Source: Patescibacteria group bacterium
GTDB lineage: Bacteria; Patescibacteriota; Patescibacteriia; Magasanikbacterales; GWA2-37-8
Assembly (NCBI GenBank): GCA_041661385.1
Contig: JBAZUP010000002.1
Location: 14,670-78,669, forward strand
Reading direction: 5' to 3'
DNA length: 64,000 nucleotides
Shown here: positions 1,334 to 37,987 of the stretch, one piece after another
How positions within the stretch are numbered: the stretch's first letter is position 1
Layout of the letters: every line of letters begins with the position of its first letter
Notes under the pieces: generated by a model
The model's database searches: none
The model's input: only the letters and a program-made list of their open reading frames with translations
Told to the model about the DNA's origin: nothing
Made by a program: the position numbers and the translations under genes

Positions 1334-3862
1334 TTACTTCACCGATAAATTATTATCAGTTACGGAAAGCGTATAACGCTTTTTTATTTTTTTACCAAGA
1401 ATAATGTCTGACATTAGATTTTCCACTCGCTCGCGCACAAAGCGTCGTACCGCTCTCGCGCCGCTGCCTGTTTCTGGCAATTGGGAGATGACCCATTCAA
1501 GGACTTTTTCATCTGAGGTAAGCGAGGTGCTGTAATTAGTGAGTTGTTCGTTGAATTTTTTTATTTCAAGATCTGCTAAACGGGTCAGGGTCTCACGTGA
1601 AAGCGGTTTGAAGAATACTATTTTATCAAGGCGGTTGATTACTTCTGGTGAAAAATATTCTTTTAATTTTTCAGTTGCTCGTTCCTGAACATCTTTACTG
1701 TCCGTTGAATCCTTGCCGAAGCCGAAGGAAGTTTTTTTGAGATCAGCGGCGCCGTAGGAGGTGGTGAGAATAATTATTGAGTGTCGCAAAGAAACGGTTT
1801 TTCCTGTTGAGTCGGTTATTTCACCGTTTTCTAACATTTGCAAAAGCAGTTTTACGATATCGCGATGCGCTTTATCAATTTCATCAAATAGTATTACGCA
1901 GTGCGGGTTCATTTTAATTTTGTCGGTAAATTGGTTGCCTTCTTTAAAACCGATATATCCTGCCGGCGAGCCGAGTAGTTTTGAAACGCCAAAGCTTTCG
2001 TTGAATTCGCTCATGTCTAGTTTGATAAATGATTCACGACTCGAATAAAGTGTTTTGGCTAAAATTTTTGCTAGTTCGGTTTTGCCGACTCCGCTTTCAC
2101 CCACGAACATAAAAGAAGCGAGCGGCCGTTCGGGGTGGGAGAGTCCAAGTTTCGCTTGTCGAACTTGCCGGCTGACATCTTTCAAAGCTTCGTCTTGTCC
2201 GACAATATGTTCGGCAAGCATTTTTTCCAGATTATCTAGTGATGATGAATCGTCGAGAAGCAGGTCGCTTGGTTTGGTGCCGATAATTTTAGCGACTTGC
2301 AGTAAAATATCTTTTTCAGTAACAACTCCGATTAACTCAATTTTTTTATTTTTGCTTTCCAAAGCAGTTTTTTTGAGTTCAGCGCGGAGTTTGTCTTCTT
2401 CTTTTTTCATTTTTACCGCTTCATCAAATTTATCTTCTCTTGCTGCCGCTTCTTTTGCCGCCACGACAATTTCTATTTTCTGTTCAAGGCGTGAAAGTTT
2501 ACTGTCGCGCGCCGAGCTTTTTACACCGAGGCGCTTTGCTGCGGCAGTTTCGTCTAATAAATCGATTGCTTTGTCTGGTAAAAATTTGTTGGTGATATAG
2601 CGTTCAGAAAGTCGCACTGCGGCCTCAACTGCTTCATCGCTAAAACCAACCTTATGATAAAGTTCGTAGTTTTGTTTTATTCCTTTTAAAATTTTTATCG
2701 CATCTTCGGTGTTTGGTTCTTTGGCATAAACCGTTTGAAATCGGCGTTCCAAGGCGGCGTCGTGCTCGATATATTTTTTAAATTCTGCCGGAGTAGTCGC
2801 GCCTATACAGCGGAGTAGTCCGCGAGATAGTGCGGGTTTCAAAATATTTGCCGCGTCCATGGTGCCTTGGTTCGATCCGGCGCCGACAATATTATGAATC
2901 TCGTCGATAAATAAAATAATATTTGGATTGCTGGTAGCTTCTTCAATAACTTGCCGAAGGCGGGCTTCAAATTCACCTCGGTAAATAGTGCCGGCGATAA
3001 GCATGCTCATGTCGAGCGTATAGATTTTTTTATTTAACAGGATATCCGGCACTTTGCCTTCGAGAATTTTTTTAGCTAAACCTTCGACGATTGCAGTTTT
3101 GCCCACACCTGGTTCGCCAAGAAGCAGGGGGTTGTTTTTTGTGCGTCGGCAAAGAATTTGAATCACGCGTTCAATTTCGTTGTCTCTGCCAATGACCGGA
3201 TCAATATTTTTTTGTACCGCCTGATTGGTGAGGTTCGTGCCAAAAAATTCTAAAACCGATTCTTTTTTCTTGTTTACTTTGGGCGGAGTCGTAGAAAGCG
3301 GAGCAATTTCTTCTTCAAGATTAATATTTTTTTCAACATTGTCTTCAATTTTTTTCGCCACTTCTGTTATTTCAGTAAGGTGAGGGAAGTGAGTCGCATT
3401 AGAAAGCACCGTATCAAGTTGTTTCAGCAATTCTTCCATGTCAACAGCGTTTACTTGCAGCACATCGACAATCAGGGGGTCTTCGGCTTCGACAAGAGCA
3501 CTAAATAAATGCTCGGTGCCGATATAATTATGATTATTGTCTTGGGCAATGGCCATGGCTTTCTCTAAAATCGTTTTAGTGATTGGAGAAAGTGGAGTCA
3601 GAGTTTGTTCTTTTACGGTGCGGGGTGGAGTATGGAGTAAATCGGTTTTGCGCACCGGCAAACTAAGCAGGGCTTGCTCAATAGTTTTAGGTGTAATTTT
3701 TAGGCGATTAATAATTTCGGCTGCGACGGAACCATGTTCGCCAGAGACAGCAAAAAAGAGGTGGATTGGTTCAACCTCTAAATTTTTTAATTCGGCCGCA
3801 AGATGAATACTGCGGGCAAGAACATCTCGCAGGTGAGAGGAAAATCGGTCAAGTAAATTCAT
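1334..3862 (-). CDS. clpC: ATP-dependent Clp protease ATP-binding subunit, ClpC-like (two AAA+ modules, short M-domain)
   Basis: 842 aa. Clp-N repeats at the N-terminus. Walker A motifs [15 protein letters not shown] and [15 protein letters not shown]. Short coiled-coil linker (ClpC-like rather than ClpB-like). An FGF loop consistent with ClpP docking. Confidence 0.85.
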
Positions 3863-7058: not shown

Positions 7059-7952
7059 TTAAACCGTCATCTCCCGGAGTTTTTTAATTCTTTCGTCAAG
7101 TGGAGGATGTGTGGAAAAAGCATTGGCCCAATTTTTTCCAGAGAACGGGCTCGCAAGAAAGAGGTGAGCGGTCGCTTGTGAGGCTTTTTGCATTGGTAAA
7201 TTATCTTGCTTGATTTTTTCAAGCGCATTTGCAAGCCCCTCGGGAAAGCGGGTGAGTAGTGAGCCGGAGGCATCGGCGAGATATTCGCGGCGCCTTGAAA
7301 TTGCGAGTTTAATCATTTCGGCAATAACCGGAGAAAGGATTGCAAGCACGATTCCAACAATCATAAAGATTGCCATAATTTGACCACCGCCTTCGCTGTC
7401 ACTGCGGCGGCGCGAACCCCAAAATCGGCTGCGTAAAAATATTTGCGCCATTATTGAAATTGCTCCAACTAGCACCGCGACCAAAGTCATAAAGCGAATG
7501 TCGTAATTTTGGATATGTGAAAGTTCGTGGGCGATTACTCCTTCTAGTTCTTCATTTTCCAGTTTTTGAATTGCGCCGGTGGTAATGGCAATAGAAGCCA
7601 ATTCCGGTTTCCGTCCGGTCGCAAAAGCATTGATGGCCGGGTCGTCGATAATATAGATTTTTGGAATTGGAGCGCCGGAGGCAATGCAAAGATTTTCTAC
7701 CAGGCGATAAACATATTTATTTTCTTCTTCAGAAATGGGCCGGGCACCGCTCGTCCAAAGAGCGATTTTATCACCTTGAAAATACGAAATGCTGGTAGAA
7801 AAAAAAGAAAAAATTATTGCAAACCAGACTCCCGCATAGGTGGTGTCGCCTTGCGCCATACTAAAGACATAGCTAAGGCCAATGATTATCACAATAAAAA
7901 TCATCATTAAAATTACGGATTTTCTTTTGTTGGCGGCGATTTCAGTATACAT
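7059..7952 (-). CDS. htpX: M48-family zinc metalloprotease HtpX
   Basis: HELSH (HExxH) motif, TM helices, C-terminal FSTHPPLDERI. Start taken at MYTEIA (ATG 7952-7950), 1 nt after the stop of the upstream gene; the longer ORF extends to 7991. Confidence 0.85.
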   Translation of the reverse strand: MYTEIAANKRKSVILMMIFIVIIIGLSYVFSMAQGDTTYAGVWFAIIFSFFSTSISYFQGDKIALWTSGARPISEEENKYVYRLVENLCIASGAPIPKIYIIDDPAINAFATGRKPELASIAITTGAIQKLENEELEGVIAHELSHIQNYDIRFMTLVAVLVGAISIMAQIFLRSRFWGSRRRSDSEGGGQIMAIFMIVGIVLAILSPVIAEMIKLAISRRREYLADASGSLLTRFPEGLANALEKIKQDNLPMQKASQATAHLFLASPFSGKNWANAFSTHPPLDERIKKLREMTV

Positions 7953-14648: not shown

Positions 14649-14685
14649 GGCCATTCAAGGCCTCCTCCTTGGAGTTCACCAGTTC

Positions 14686-31871: not shown

Positions 31872-32041
31872 TTAATTTAAGAAATATATAGACATTTTCT
31901 ATAAGTAATTTTACATTTATATATGCAAAATAGCAACCCTAGCTTTGCTATATTTCGCTTGTAACTTACTTAACTTTAGCTGTGTATACTCTGTAAGGCG
32001 GCACATTGTTACATGCGCCTTTATTATTTAGCCAAGTTAGT

Positions 32042-32956
32042 ATGAAAAAAACAACAATGCTAACAGTAATGGTTGTTGCGTTTGCAGCTGGTATTGTGTT
32101 GCCGGCGATTGTAAATGCTCAGACAATTGGAAATCAAATTACTCTTATTCTAAAAAAAGAAAATATTAATCCGGTTGTGTTGGTATCGACTAATACAATT
32201 CCTACCGCCTCAACTACGGTCATTGTTCCGGCTTTGAAAGAGGCTGCTAAACCAAACACACAAAAGATCTCGCGCCTAGATCAGTTGGTCGCCAAACTTA
32301 AATTAAATACTATTAGCAATGAAGTTTTAGAATTACAAACTGGGTTAAAAAAACTTGGGTATTTTTCTGTAAATTTTAAGCCGACAAAAAAATATGGTCC
32401 AGCAACTGCCGCGGCAGTAAAAAAATATCAGGCTGATAAAAAATTGCCTCGTTTTGAGCAGTTGGTTTCTAGACTTCGGTCCGGAATGGTAAGTAATGAA
32501 GTTTTAGAATTACAAACAGGGTTAAAAAAACTTGGATATTTATCAAAAACTTTTAAACCTACAAATAAATATGGGTCGGCAACCGCTGTCGCCGTAAAAA
32601 AATATCTGGCAGATAAAAAGAAAAAAACGAACGTTTCGACTGCGGTAAAATCGCCGGCAATAAAAACTTCGGTTGTTGCAAAATCGGCGACAGTGGTAAA
32701 ACCCGCGACTGTTCCGGTCGTGCGAAGTTATACAATGGCAGAAGTTAGTGTAAATAACAGCGCTGCGAAATGTTGGTCAGCAATTAACGGCAAAGTTTAT
32801 AATCTTACTAATTTCTTTGGTAATCATGCTGGTGGGGATCCGGCGATTGCGTCGTTATGCGGTAAAGATGGTACAGTTTCTTTTGATGCTATGCATGGCG
32901 GAAAGGTGAAACCCGAAACGGTTCTAAAAACCTTTGAAATCGGATTGTTAAAATAA
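32042..32956 (+). CDS. Secreted protein with two peptidoglycan-binding (PG_binding_1-like) repeats and a C-terminal cytochrome b5-like heme-binding domain
   Basis: Signal peptide. Duplicated LELQTGLKKLGY...KYG.ATA.AVKKY modules. C-terminus YTMAEVSVNNSAAKCWSAINGKVYNLTNFFGNHAGG (b5-like H.GG). The track ORF starts at 32006. Confidence 0.6.
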   Translation: MKKTTMLTVMVVAFAAGIVLPAIVNAQTIGNQITLILKKENINPVVLVSTNTIPTASTTVIVPALKEAAKPNTQKISRLDQLVAKLKLNTISNEVLELQTGLKKLGYFSVNFKPTKKYGPATAAAVKKYQADKKLPRFEQLVSRLRSGMVSNEVLELQTGLKKLGYLSKTFKPTNKYGSATAVAVKKYLADKKKKTNVSTAVKSPAIKTSVVAKSATVVKPATVPVVRSYTMAEVSVNNSAAKCWSAINGKVYNLTNFFGNHAGGDPAIASLCGKDGTVSFDAMHGGKVKPETVLKTFEIGLLK

Positions 32957-36685: not shown

Positions 36686-37372
36686 CTACTCTTGTTCTTT
36701 ATAGCGATTTAAAATTTGTTCAATTAATTTCGGATCGCCCGTATATTTCTCGTGAATAATTTGTTCGATTTCTTTAAAACTATATTCTTGGTTGTAGGGT
36801 CGGTGTGAGGCGAGAGCATCAAAAATATCCGCCGCCGCAACTATTGCCGCGCGCTCATAAATTTTTTTCTCTCCATTCCGGCGGTTTGGTTGCGCGGGCT
36901 TGCCGTTACCATTTCCATTTCTGGGGTAGGGGTTGTTCTGATGTTCATGATGAGATGCGACAATTTCTCTAATGCCATCAAAGGCCGGATCAATTAGTCT
37001 TTCAAAACCTTTTCTAGCGTGAGTGCGCATTAAATCCATTTCTTCTTTGGTGAGGGGAGAATTTTTTGCAAGAACCTCTAAAGGAATGTAGCATTTGCCA
37101 AGGTCATGGAGAAGTCCGCCCGCGCCAACTAACTTTGTTTCTTCTGGTTGTAGATGGTTTTCTATGCAAAGGTCAGTGCTTAGGGTTCCAACTCTTACGC
37201 TATGTTCGTACGAGGGGGCATGGTGTTTTCTAAGGAAATCTAAATGACCAGCTATTCTTTCATCGCTCAAAAGTTCACTGATTAAATCGACGGCTTCTAC
37301 ATTCTTGAGTTTGTAAGGGAAATCAACCGAGCCAATTTTTCCTTCGGGATTGAACCCTAATCTTTCGGGCAT
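36686..37372 (-). CDS. HD-domain metal-dependent phosphohydrolase, HD-GYP-like
   Basis: HDLGK, HHEHQNNPYP (HHE..YP in place of GYP) and DIFDAL. Single domain of 228 aa. Confidence 0.65.
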   Translation of the reverse strand: MPERLGFNPEGKIGSVDFPYKLKNVEAVDLISELLSDERIAGHLDFLRKHHAPSYEHSVRVGTLSTDLCIENHLQPEETKLVGAGGLLHDLGKCYIPLEVLAKNSPLTKEEMDLMRTHARKGFERLIDPAFDGIREIVASHHEHQNNPYPRNGNGNGKPAQPNRRNGEKKIYERAAIVAAADIFDALASHRPYNQEYSFKEIEQIIHEKYTGDPKLIEQILNRYKEQE

Positions 37373-37436
37373 ATCGTAATGGTTTTTAACAGTTAAATAT
37401 TACAGCTATTATTAATTTTTGACAACTAGTAAATAA

Positions 37437-37800
37437 AAACCCCGCATATAGCGGAGTATTATATTTATAGTTGCCAACGAGAATTTCACTCGCTCACTTC
37501 GTTCGCTCTCACGAAAACCTTCGGGTTTTCGTGGACTTTCCTCGGCAAGAGAAAACTCCCGTTTTCTCCCTTTCCCGCTCAATTCCCCAGATCACTAAAT
37601 AAAATACCCCACTTAAAGTGGAGTATTTTATTTTGTAGTCCCAACGGGGAATTTCACTGCTCGGCCTTCGGCCTGCGCTTTGAGAAACCGTTCGGGTTTC
37701 TCAATACTCATCCGCAGCAATGCGGGGAAATACTTTCCCCGCCACCCCTTTGTTCAATTCCCTCGACAGAAATATAAAAACAAAAACCGCCATAAATGGC
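37437..37800 (-). repeat. Two diverged tandem ~170-bp units. Each contains a copy of the 3'-terminal ~21 nt of the adjacent tRNA-Glu, a ~110-nt hairpin-dense segment and a terminator-like hairpin.
   Basis: tRNA gene TAGTCCCAACGGGAATTGAACC (37814-); copy 1 TAGTCCCAACGGGGAATTTCAC (37636-); copy 2 TAGTTGCCAACGAGAATTTCAC (37468-). Units also share GAGAAACCGTTCGGGTTTCTC vs CACGAAAACCTTCGGGTTTTCGTG and CTTTGTTCAATTCCCTC vs CTTTCCCGCTCAATTCCCC. Confidence 0.6.
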
Positions 37801-37813
37801 AGTTTTGTTTTTG

Positions 37814-37885
37814 TAGTCCCAACGGGAATTGAACCCGTATTTTCGCCTTGAAAGGGCAATGTCCTAACCATTAGACGATGAGACC
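37814..37885 (-). tRNA. tRNA-Glu (anticodon TTC)
   Basis: Minus-strand GGTCTCATCGTCTAATGGTTAGGACATTGCCCTTTCAAGGCGAAAATACGGGTTCAATTCCCGTTGGGACTA. Cloverleaf with anticodon loop CTTTCAA and T-arm ACGGG/CCCGT. Promoter TTGACT-17-TATATT upstream on the minus strand (about 37900-37932). A terminator hairpin directly follows. Confidence 0.75.
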
Positions 37886-37987
37886 ATTTTCAATGAGTAC
37901 CAATATATCATAAATTTATAAGAAAGTCAATCTGACCAAGCTGGCATTGGTTGTTTTAATATAATTCTCGTGGAATAATATAATTAT

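Follow-up and report, generated by a model that had tools for sequence, protein, structure and literature searches.

Are copies of a tRNA 3' end that lie downstream of the tRNA gene itself the scars of a mobile element, the remnants of duplicated tRNA genes, or parts of a structured RNA? The question is raised by a tRNA-Glu(UUC) gene on the minus strand of the window studied here (the whole stretch of 64,000 nucleotides, positions 14,670 to 78,669 of contig JBAZUP010000002.1, from an uncultured bacterium of the Patescibacteria, or candidate phyla radiation, CPR), which is followed by two units of about 170 bp that each end in a copy of the last nucleotides of the tRNA. A preliminary description of the window had listed these three origins as options. 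Our analysis suggests, at somewhat less than even confidence, that the two units are paralogues within a hitherto undescribed family of structured RNAs, linked physically and in evolution to tRNA-Glu in some Patescibacteria and transcribed together with it. The RNA reading is favoured because the helices are under compensatory maintenance, the fold is specific to one strand, the units are GC-rich and share a compact and uniform architecture, the element recurs at tRNA-Glu in unrelated surroundings, and no protein or cargo that would be a hallmark of mobility was found at the loci examined. Among the three options, tRNA-like structured small RNAs thus fared best, with conserved structure, strand-specific wobbles, GC richness and a second CPR genome in their favour, but 'tRNA-like' is the wrong word for them. 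What the units would do is inferred.

A tRNA-Glu gene followed by two structured units

On the minus strand, tRNA-Glu is followed by a terminator (T1) and then by the two ~170-bp units, each consisting of a 5' box (given as GGGAATTGA), the hairpins P1, P2 and P3, the tetranucleotide GUGA, a copy of the tRNA from A57/58 in the T-loop to the discriminator A73, and a terminator of its own. The structured element within each unit is about 125 nt long, GC-rich and built of four helices. The coordinates of all parts were confirmed by sequence extraction:

37814-37885, minus strand: tRNA-Glu(UUC), with the lower coordinate at 37813/4 in ARAGORN/Rfam (ARAGORN and the Rfam tRNA model, 65.1 bits)
37752-37762, minus strand: unit 1, 5' box GGGAAUUGAAC (repeat I4, 11/11 complementary to 37824-37834)
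37722-37742, minus strand: unit 1, P1, 9 bp, loop GUA (folding)
37677-37707, minus strand: unit 1, P2, 2 + 10 bp, loop CGAAC (inverted repeat I6, folding)
37659-37676, minus strand: unit 1, P3, GAA triloop (folding)
37636-37657, minus strand: unit 1, 3' box, GUGA followed by AAUUCCC(C)GUUGGGACUA (direct repeat D2; tRNA copy A57/58 to A73)
37577-37588, minus strand: unit 2, 5' box GGGGAAUUGAGC (box pattern, extraction)
37548-37569, minus strand: unit 2, P1, 9 bp, loop GGGA (folding)
37507-37535, minus strand: unit 2, P2, 2 + 10 bp, loop CGAA (inverted repeat I5, folding)
37492-37506, minus strand: unit 2, P3, GAA triloop, stem with tandem G.A/A.G (structure comparison)
37468-37489, minus strand: unit 2, 3' box, GUGA followed by AAUUCUCGUUGGCAACUA (direct repeat D1; degenerate tRNA 3'-end copy)

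The earlier placement of tRNA-Glu on the minus strand, with two downstream copies of its 3' end at ~170 bp, was confirmed by ARAGORN, Rfam and a repeat finder, the measured spacing of the 3'-end copies being 167-178 bp. As had been described, the copy at 37636-37657 is nearly exact and the copy at 37468-37489 degenerate: the first (GAAATTCCCCGTTGGGACTA, 37636-37655) differs from the tRNA by a single inserted C, and the second (AATTCTCGTTGGCAACTA, 37468-37485) by several substitutions or indels. The copies had been said to comprise the acceptor 3' strand plus the T-arm 3' strand; they are real, but their start lies inside the T-loop at A57/A58, giving direct repeats from A57/58 to A73 at 37636-37653 and 37468-37485. 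The copies have 1-nt indels and are therefore not clean replacement exons. The inverted copy of the T-loop that had been reported to bound each unit at its other end is likewise present, since GGGAATTGAAC at 37752-37762 is an 11/11 complement of GTTCAATTCCC in the tRNA and has a counterpart, GGGAATTGAGC, in unit 2. The 5' box of unit 1 is antisense to G53-C63 of the tRNA and doubles as the 5' strand of the closing helix (H0, tandem G.A, H0b). The pattern running from box to box occurs twice in the window and in 0/100 shuffles, and the three hairpins named earlier in the proximal unit (GCGGGGAAAGTATTTCCCCGC, GAGAAACCCGAACGGTTTCTC and GGCCGAAGGCC) are found at verified coordinates.

The array is not an assembly artefact, because an independent ENA assembly is identical across the complete 615-bp intergenic region. 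Three Logan short-read contigs of the same organism (L002:1, L003:1 and L176:1) stop within the P2 hairpin of unit 2 or within the tRNA. Some assemblies thus lose or break the array systematically, and this may make elements of this kind under-represented in metagenome collections. The GC content is 0.54 in unit 1 and 0.50 in unit 2, in a window of ~41.6% GC. The tRNA-Glu gene itself has no encoded CCA. Its acceptor stem contains the wobbles G1.U72 and U5.G68, U72 being common to all three 3'-end copies in the window, and the orthologue in a second CPR genome (L103, see below) has seven Watson-Crick pairs.

If the units were tRNA pseudogenes, left by tandem duplication and decay of the entire tRNA-Glu gene, homology of their last 17-18 nt and of their terminators to those of the tRNA gene would be expected, and both are observed. 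Only these last nucleotides of each unit derive from the tRNA, however, and its first 100 nt do not resemble the acceptor 5' strand, the D arm or the anticodon arm. ARAGORN and Rfam (E up to 10) found no tRNA or pseudo-tRNA in the units, that of L103 included, and the helices are under compensatory maintenance rather than decay. We regard this origin as highly improbable, and it is the least supported of the three options that had been listed. The check by ARAGORN and Rfam that the preliminary description had proposed thus found no tRNA, pseudo-tRNA or known non-coding RNA family in the units.

Conservation of the fold between the two units

Both units fold as the same four-way junction, formed by a closing helix, P1, P2 and P3, with minimum free energies (MFE) well below those of dinucleotide shuffles (z = -7.8 for unit 1 and -3.5 for unit 2). 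In the closing helix the 5' box pairs over 7 bp with AAUUC(C/U)C in the 3' box, and beyond a tandem G.A/A.G the helix goes on for 2 further pairs. Among the 36 homologous pairs of the two units, 18 are the same, 12 are changed on both sides, 4 differ on one side without loss of pairing, and 2 are converted to a tandem G.A/A.G. Hence 16/18 changed pairs still pair (binomial P ~1e-5 against an expectation of 0.375) despite differences at 31/72 paired nucleotides (43%). A covariance model built on unit 1 recovers unit 2 end to end (42.6 bits, E ~1e-9) and has no further match within the 64-kb window, which bears out the earlier claim that the GC-rich hairpin segments of the two units are homologous. 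In the alignment derived from the model 100% of the cells are paired and 11 pairs are changed on both sides, compared with 1-3 in slid controls, and 0/500 shuffles reach the observed values. MAFFT with RNAalifold on three units misaligned the hairpins, and the covariance-model alignment and a manual alignment were used instead. The sequences conserved in loops and junctions are UUGC, AAACC-CGAA-GGUUU, GAA and GUGA.

The units had been called degenerating; from the pairs that still form, the fold appears instead to be preserved via compensatory substitutions and is not simply decaying. Compensatory change of the kind expected of a structured RNA is thus present, in a comparison of two paralogues only, with an alignment fitted to the structure. 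Unit 2 has more wobbles and mismatches than unit 1, and looks like a less constrained, partly decaying paralogue. Its stems are nevertheless better preserved than its tRNA-derived 3' core, with 5 defects in 68 nt of stem and 6 in 21 nt of the core (Fisher P = 0.018).

The direction of the wobbles identifies the strand. Four G.U pairs in the helices of the units would be A.C mismatches on the plus strand, with no reverse case, and in all three terminators a U.G at one shared stem position would likewise turn into a C.A mismatch there. These wobbles fit the minus strand only, and the folded strand is therefore the tRNA-sense strand.

Such a pattern might also be left by neutral by-products of replication and repair, in which tandem duplication and template switching at the palindromic T-arm would have produced units that are functionless as RNA or DNA. 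The T-arm is indeed palindromic, with a self-complementary AATT, unit 2 is more degenerate than unit 1, and template switching can yield apparent compensatory changes without selection. The three modules of core plus terminator are also about equally similar (68-75%), as fits local duplication. We consider this explanation improbable. Stems that differ at 43% of positions and yet pair, together with loops and junction motifs that are kept, form the pattern of a constrained structure, and the wobbles all lie on one strand. The distribution of the architecture, described below, tells further against it.

Transcription signals and a predicted alternative fold with the tRNA

The signals for initiation and termination around the array are as follows:

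37902-37930, minus strand: promoter-like site of tRNA-Glu (TTGACT, 17 nt, TATATT, with TG before the second hexamer; 10/12 consensus matches)
37767-37813, minus strand: trailer with terminator T1 (CUGCCA-UUUA-UGGCGG and a U-tract; terminator scan)
37592-37635, minus strand: terminator T2, with A-rich and U-rich flanks (inverted repeat I1, 21-nt arms, 90% complementary)
37426-37467, minus strand: terminator T3 (terminator scan, minus strand)
37396-37425, minus strand: promoter-like site of the downstream HD-domain gene (TTGTCA, 17 nt, TAATAT), at the end of the array and outside it

The promoter-like site of tRNA-Glu is the sole one upstream of the array on that strand, and a promoter scan of the array strand detected none belonging to the units. 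A separate promoter-like site, that of the HD gene, lies after T3. The terminator-like hairpins that had been noted after the tRNA and after each unit correspond to three homologous ones, all of them GC-rich hairpins followed by a U-tract as expected of intrinsic terminators. The terminator scan called T1 and T3 on the minus strand and T2 on the plus strand, though the U.G pair of T2 fits the minus strand. The module containing T2 is 72-75% identical to those of T1 and T3, and the pairwise identity of the three core-plus-terminator modules is 68-75% in all pairs, a value that does not discriminate between tandem duplication and serial integration. Since the units have no promoter of their own and the spacer hairpin between tRNA and unit in L103 has no U-tract, co-transcription with tRNA-Glu is inferred: the units would be made as part of the tRNA-Glu transcript, which in the genome of the window would require read-through of T1 and T2.

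Such a transcript would have two alternative folds, a property that had gone unreported, as in the modelled energies the 5' box pairs better with the T-arm of the tRNA than with its own 3' end. The duplex of the 5' box with the T-region of the tRNA has a predicted energy of -19.6 kcal/mol in the window and -18.3 kcal/mol in L103, compared with -13.4 and -10.2 kcal/mol for the duplex with its own 3' box, and the 5' box of unit 2 likewise pairs at -16.3 kcal/mol with the 3' box of unit 1 and at -9.9 kcal/mol with its own. The box segment UUGAA complements the T-loop UUC(A/G)A, in place of which the 3' boxes of the units have GUGA. When the tRNA and the unit are folded together, a swapped topology is the MFE structure in both genomes, by 7.1 kcal/mol (window) and 3.2 kcal/mol (L103) over an enforced cloverleaf. 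In the swapped fold the acceptor 5' strand, the D arm and the anticodon arm are intact, the T-region pairs with the 5' box, and the 3' copy of the unit completes the acceptor stem and, in L103, also the T-stem.

We propose that a tRNA-identical 3' end, with its trailer, would let the unit RNA be matured and protected at that end in the way the tRNA is, RNase Z-type cleavage and subsequent CCA addition being the likely route for precursors that carry no CCA. The anti-T-arm box would let the transcript toggle between a state with cloverleaf and closed unit and a swapped state, in which the box would unzip the T-arm of the tRNA and the spare 3' end of the unit would pair with the 5' acceptor strand. 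The toggle is proposed to act in cis on the share of read-through transcript that matures into tRNA-Glu. A stronger version, in which a programmed swap replaces the 3' end of tRNA-Glu in read-through transcripts, seems to us quite improbable. Its product would, according to the models, keep the acceptor stem, the D arm and the UUC anticodon arm intact, with a structured domain of ~150 nt replacing the T-loop, and could serve as a riboregulatory off-state for tRNA-Glu maturation. By analogy it could even be a carrier of Glu for non-ribosomal use, chargeable by GluRS and incompetent on the ribosome; the staphylococcal tRNA-Gly dedicated to the cell wall, with its altered T-arm, is a loose analogy.

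A related unit in a second CPR genome

GTDB genomes were scanned with a pattern of the tRNA T-arm plus acceptor in over-degenerate IUPAC code, which matched mostly non-CPR phyla, including tRNAs of Nitrospira, Deltaproteobacteria, Actinomycetota and others. The yield was at least 120 rows with three CPR loci among the matches listed, a very small CPR sample and the chief limitation of the analysis. An inverted T-arm copy together with a direct 3'-end copy was found only in the window and in L103, out of 114 distinct tRNA-Glu loci among the matches listed; the remaining loci sit at background, and no unit was detected at the ~110 non-CPR tRNA-Glu loci with the same T-arm.

L103 (Patescibacteria metagenome-assembled genome (MAG) REEB140) carries a tRNA-Glu(UUC) followed by a related unit that has no P2, and is the one further genome with a homologue at a comparable locus, as would be expected of a structured RNA. 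Its order is tRNA-Glu(UUC), the spacer hairpin without U-tract, CGGGAAUUGAAAG, a long GCA-loop hairpin, a GAA-loop hairpin, GUGACC, GAUCCCGUUGGGACCA and CCA, the 5' box element after the spacer hairpin being GGGAATTGAA. The covariance model of unit 1 aligns the L103 unit over its full length, with a deletion of P2, at 13 bits. Three assemblies agree exactly on the locus, and its neighbours (a P-type ATPase, tRNA-Ser, a nucleoside deoxyribosyltransferase and LemA) are unrelated to those of the window, so that the two loci are non-syntenic. The 3' copies follow the local tRNA at position 57 (A or G) and position 72 (U or C), and the 5' box does not differ between the window and L103.

This distribution weighs on the neutral by-product explanation, for which the recurrence of the 5' box, the GAA-loop hairpin, the GTGA and the core in a second, non-syntenic genome would be unexpected, as would the presence of the architecture at none of the ~110 other tRNA-Glu loci with the same palindromic T-arm among the matches listed.

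At the third CPR locus with a trace of such a unit, L089:7283-7353 (Patescibacteria MAG H51-bin166_1), a terminator-like hairpin (CGGGGTTACCCCG) comes after a tRNA-Glu(CUC) and precedes GTGTGGGGTTCAAATCCCGATTAAGACACCA, a diverged full T-arm plus acceptor 3' strand with an encoded CCA and with neither hairpin module nor 5' box. Its score of 22 is marginal against a background 95th percentile of 20, and the fragment may represent an earlier or 'empty' state of such a locus, or else an ordinary attachment (att) scar. An encoded CCA stands after the displaced copies in L103 (2053-2058) and L089 (~7351-7353) and not after the neighbouring tRNA-Glu genes; it is present in 1/11 tRNA genes of the CPR loci examined, numbers too small to call. 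L089 also contains intergenic heptamer repeats at 7703-7790, in which GGTTTTA occurs ~5 times and is followed directly by CCCAATA and CACCTAA repeats.

Synteny searches via the HD gene, the nucleoside deoxyribosyltransferase beside L103 and the PCMT (protein-L-isoaspartate methyltransferase) gene that flanks the array in the window found nearest relatives that are 55-66% identical, non-syntenic and without a tRNA-Glu at that position. Among the PCMT homologue loci from Hainich groundwater (L178, L179 and L180, ~2618-3200), collinear contigs diverge downstream of PCMT, where a MazG gene is called in some and a stretch of ~500 nt has no called gene in others.

Mobile DNA as an alternative

The rival that has to be weighed most closely holds that the units are miniature cargo-less integrative elements, with att sites only and comparable to cis-mobilizable elements (CIMEs), or the remains of such elements, which entered an att site in the T-loop of tRNA-Glu serially by means of a recombinase encoded elsewhere. 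Each insertion would bring a new tRNA 3' end and terminator, displacing the previous 3' end downstream, and the hairpin module would be a recombination, transfer or replication signal acting as folded single-stranded DNA (ssDNA), or an element-encoded RNA. We judge this unlikely, though a real contender. As expected of att sites, a direct repeat of the 3' part of the tRNA runs from within the T-loop to the 3' end, and slightly past it, in the window and in L103. An attB within a T-loop is documented for mycobacteriophage Ms6 (PMC1762012), and in Dehalococcoides 20-bp repeats of the 3' end flank the tandem islands at ssrA, where a conserved element-derived motif lies directly upstream of each repeat and cis-mobilizable elements without integration genes occur (PMC3146451). 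Similarly, a motif that is not part of the tRNA (GTGA after the GAA-loop hairpin) abuts every repeat in both genomes, and the most distal copy is the most degenerate, as would be the case for the oldest displaced 3' end. The same target is used in two non-syntenic genomes, and the element is absent at the other CPR tRNA-Glu loci among the matches listed. The match of the 3' copies to the local tRNA at 57 and 72 with a 5' box constant in both genomes, the promoterless units and the G1.U72 wobble in the present tRNA would also be consistent with serial integration.

Other hallmarks of mobility were not found. There is no integrase or recombinase among the 30 window open reading frames (ORFs) screened with Pfam or NCBIfam, which bears out the earlier statement that neither integrase nor cargo is present, and none beside the L103 unit. 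The intervals between the repeats are 115-165 bp, with no cargo and no conserved ORF, and show the same architecture in three copies, unlike random deletion remnants; a circle so small would be difficult to excise. No empty site or copy-number variant was seen in the assemblies compared (two of the window locus and three of L103), and pattern scans of viral contigs, annotated phages and plasmids, with BLAST of the array against plasmids and phages, found no attP-like copy. The integration scars proposed earlier are thus consistent with the repeat from T-loop to 3' end, the degenerate distal copy and the abutting GTGA, but not with the lack of an integrase, cargo, empty site or matching attP in these searches. 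Moreover, arm sites bound by protein leave 11-12 fully compensated pairs and the strand-specific wobbles unexplained, the stems of unit 2 have not decayed as its core has, contrary to long disuse, and the homology of the three modules runs through the terminators (68-75%), which is not required of att sites.

In the scans for the unit pattern, 29 matches in viral contigs and 13 in JGI metagenomes were chance hits in AT-rich or coding DNA, and the JGI scan did not return the organism's own locus. The pattern of box plus core had one match in viral contigs (L177), in a coding region and hence due to chance, and the 17-nt core had 0 matches there.

The window itself is a chromosomal segment whose flanks encode RNase Y, HU, PCMT, TruB, IF-2, NusA, YidC and RF-1, and the adjoining proteins carry the name 'Patescibacteria group bacterium' in public sources. 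A phage origin of the window was rejected on account of the neighbours RNase Y, TruB, IF-2, HU, NusA, YidC and RF-1. The ORF at 32006-32956 on the plus strand combines two PG_binding_1 repeats with a C-terminal cytochrome b5-like heme-binding domain, an unusual fusion.

Several observations weigh against a structured RNA as the explanation of the units. The repeat boundary in the T-loop is the classical footprint of an integrase att site, and the lineage-specific bases of the tRNA (57 and 72) reappear in the 3' copy but not in the 5' box, a split that an integration model predicts directly and for which the RNA reading needs gene conversion. The CPR locus L098 has no unit and L089 has a short diverged fragment only; the distribution is therefore patchy, as for mobile DNA. 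Good terminators separate the tRNA, unit 1 and unit 2, and with no promoter for the units their expression could be very low. The nearest-neighbour energies behind the alternative fold take no account of tertiary contacts and modifications in the tRNA, both of which favour the cloverleaf. The sample is limited to three copies in two genomes, and covariation between two paralogues, in an alignment fitted to the structure, is weak phylogenetic sampling. Perfect palindromes can also be maintained at the DNA level, by template-switch correction of quasi-palindromes or as functional ssDNA, and G.T is the best tolerated mismatch in DNA.

Other candidate families

Known RNA families do not account for the units. 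Against the 4227 curated Rfam models the best unit matches reach 14-22 bits, compared with cut-offs of 38-100 bits, and the L103 unit has none; the models for tRNA, mascRNA, tRNA-like structure (TLS) and Y RNA do not match the units. A T-box leader was rejected, as the 3' end of the unit is identical and not complementary to the tRNA 3' end and there is no Rfam T-box match; nor is a leader position given, because transcription of the HD gene downstream would start from its promoter-like site beyond T3. An integron attC site, in which an inverse core RYYYAAC pairs with a core GTTRRRY in a single imperfect hairpin, was also rejected: the 5' ends of the units read ATTGAAC/ATTGAGC, GTTGGGA or GTTGGCA lies outside the closing helix, and the fold is a four-way junction. 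A k-turn, a C/D-box RNA, IS200/IS605 ends or an omega-RNA, and an invertible segment were dismissed for missing defining features or for want of a gene for a partner protein. A coding role was rejected because the ORFs are not conserved between the units, the frame that is open in unit 2 being closed in unit 1. An ORF of the MBL fold in the window was considered as a source of RNase Z and is ComEC-like.

A candidate fourth tRNA remnant, CGAAAGATTAGGGTTCAATCCCG (37345-37367, minus strand), lies in the first codons of the HD gene, ~100 nt past the array, and resembles positions 41-64 of tRNA-Glu (variable region and T-arm). This resemblance is most likely a coincidence, because HD homologues conserve the F-x-P-E encoded here and the best chance match in the window scores just as high, and the candidate was rejected.

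Implications

If the units are RNA, and if the explanation is true, they would represent a new class of tRNA-linked structured RNA in the CPR, a huge and nearly uncultured part of bacterial diversity in which, to our knowledge, very few non-coding RNAs have been described. The combination of an antisense T-loop box with a spare tRNA 3' end would be an unusual design that suggests control in cis of tRNA folding or maturation, and we know of no regulatory layer of this kind for bacterial tRNAs. If the units are instead mobile DNA, and that explanation is true, they would amount to essentially an att site around a folded core, smaller than any integrative element known so far to target a tRNA, and would offer a handle on recombinase action in CPR genomes. 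For annotation, it follows that a duplicated tRNA 3' end is not automatically the boundary of a genomic island.

Comparison with known systems

The array resembles the attL/attR arrays at tRNA and tmRNA genes in its repeat from T-loop to 3' end, its tandem arrangement, its most degenerate distal copy and the motif upstream of the repeat (PMC3146451; PMC1762012), and like known integrase-less elements (PMC3146451) it has no integrase of its own. Unlike in those arrays, its repeats are separated by 115-165 bp that contain no gene, with no nearby recombinase, empty site or attP partner found, the interval forms a compact fold of RNA type kept by compensation, and the antisense T-loop sequence at its start is not a described feature of att sites.

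Folded single-strand recombination sites include the attC sites of integrons and the CTX-phage attP used by XerCD. The units share with these sites the conservation of structure over sequence, a strand-specific fold, a tandem array beside a fixed site, and a closing helix that imitates the target-site duplex with central mismatches. They differ in that R''/R' core sites (RYYYAAC / GTTRRRY) are missing, the fold is a junction of several hairpins rather than a single long one, and no cassette ORFs, integron integrase or dif-like site is found at the units. REP/BIME, BOX and Correia-type miniature inverted-repeat transposable elements (MITEs) are dispersed in many copies per genome and have target-site duplications of 2-10 bp. 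The units are, like them, short, GC-rich, hairpin-forming, intergenic, located downstream of genes and modular, but the 64 kb contain two copies, each of them at tRNA-Glu, and the repeat consists of 17-18 bp of the tRNA.

Among RNAs, the 3' end of MALAT1 (mascRNA), the viral 3' TLS and the tRNA-like domain of the bacterial Y RNA YrlA also present tRNA sequence or shape at a 3' end, and the units could in the same way recruit tRNA end-processing enzymes. These RNAs mimic the whole L-shape with acceptor, T arm and elbow, whereas the units have only the 3' strands, paired with the 5' box. A closer likeness in position is offered by 3'ETS-leuZ of Escherichia coli, a functional RNA cut from the 3' external transcribed spacer (3'ETS) of a tRNA precursor. 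Known 3'ETS RNAs are short, sponge Hfq-dependent small RNAs, and are not known to have a copy of the tRNA 3' end or an anti-T-arm box. Like them, the units lie in a tRNA trailer upstream of a terminator, have no promoter of their own and would presumably be released by 3' processing of the tRNA; unlike them, they combine a copy of the tRNA 3' end with an anti-T-arm box, and a terminator stands between the tRNA and unit 1.

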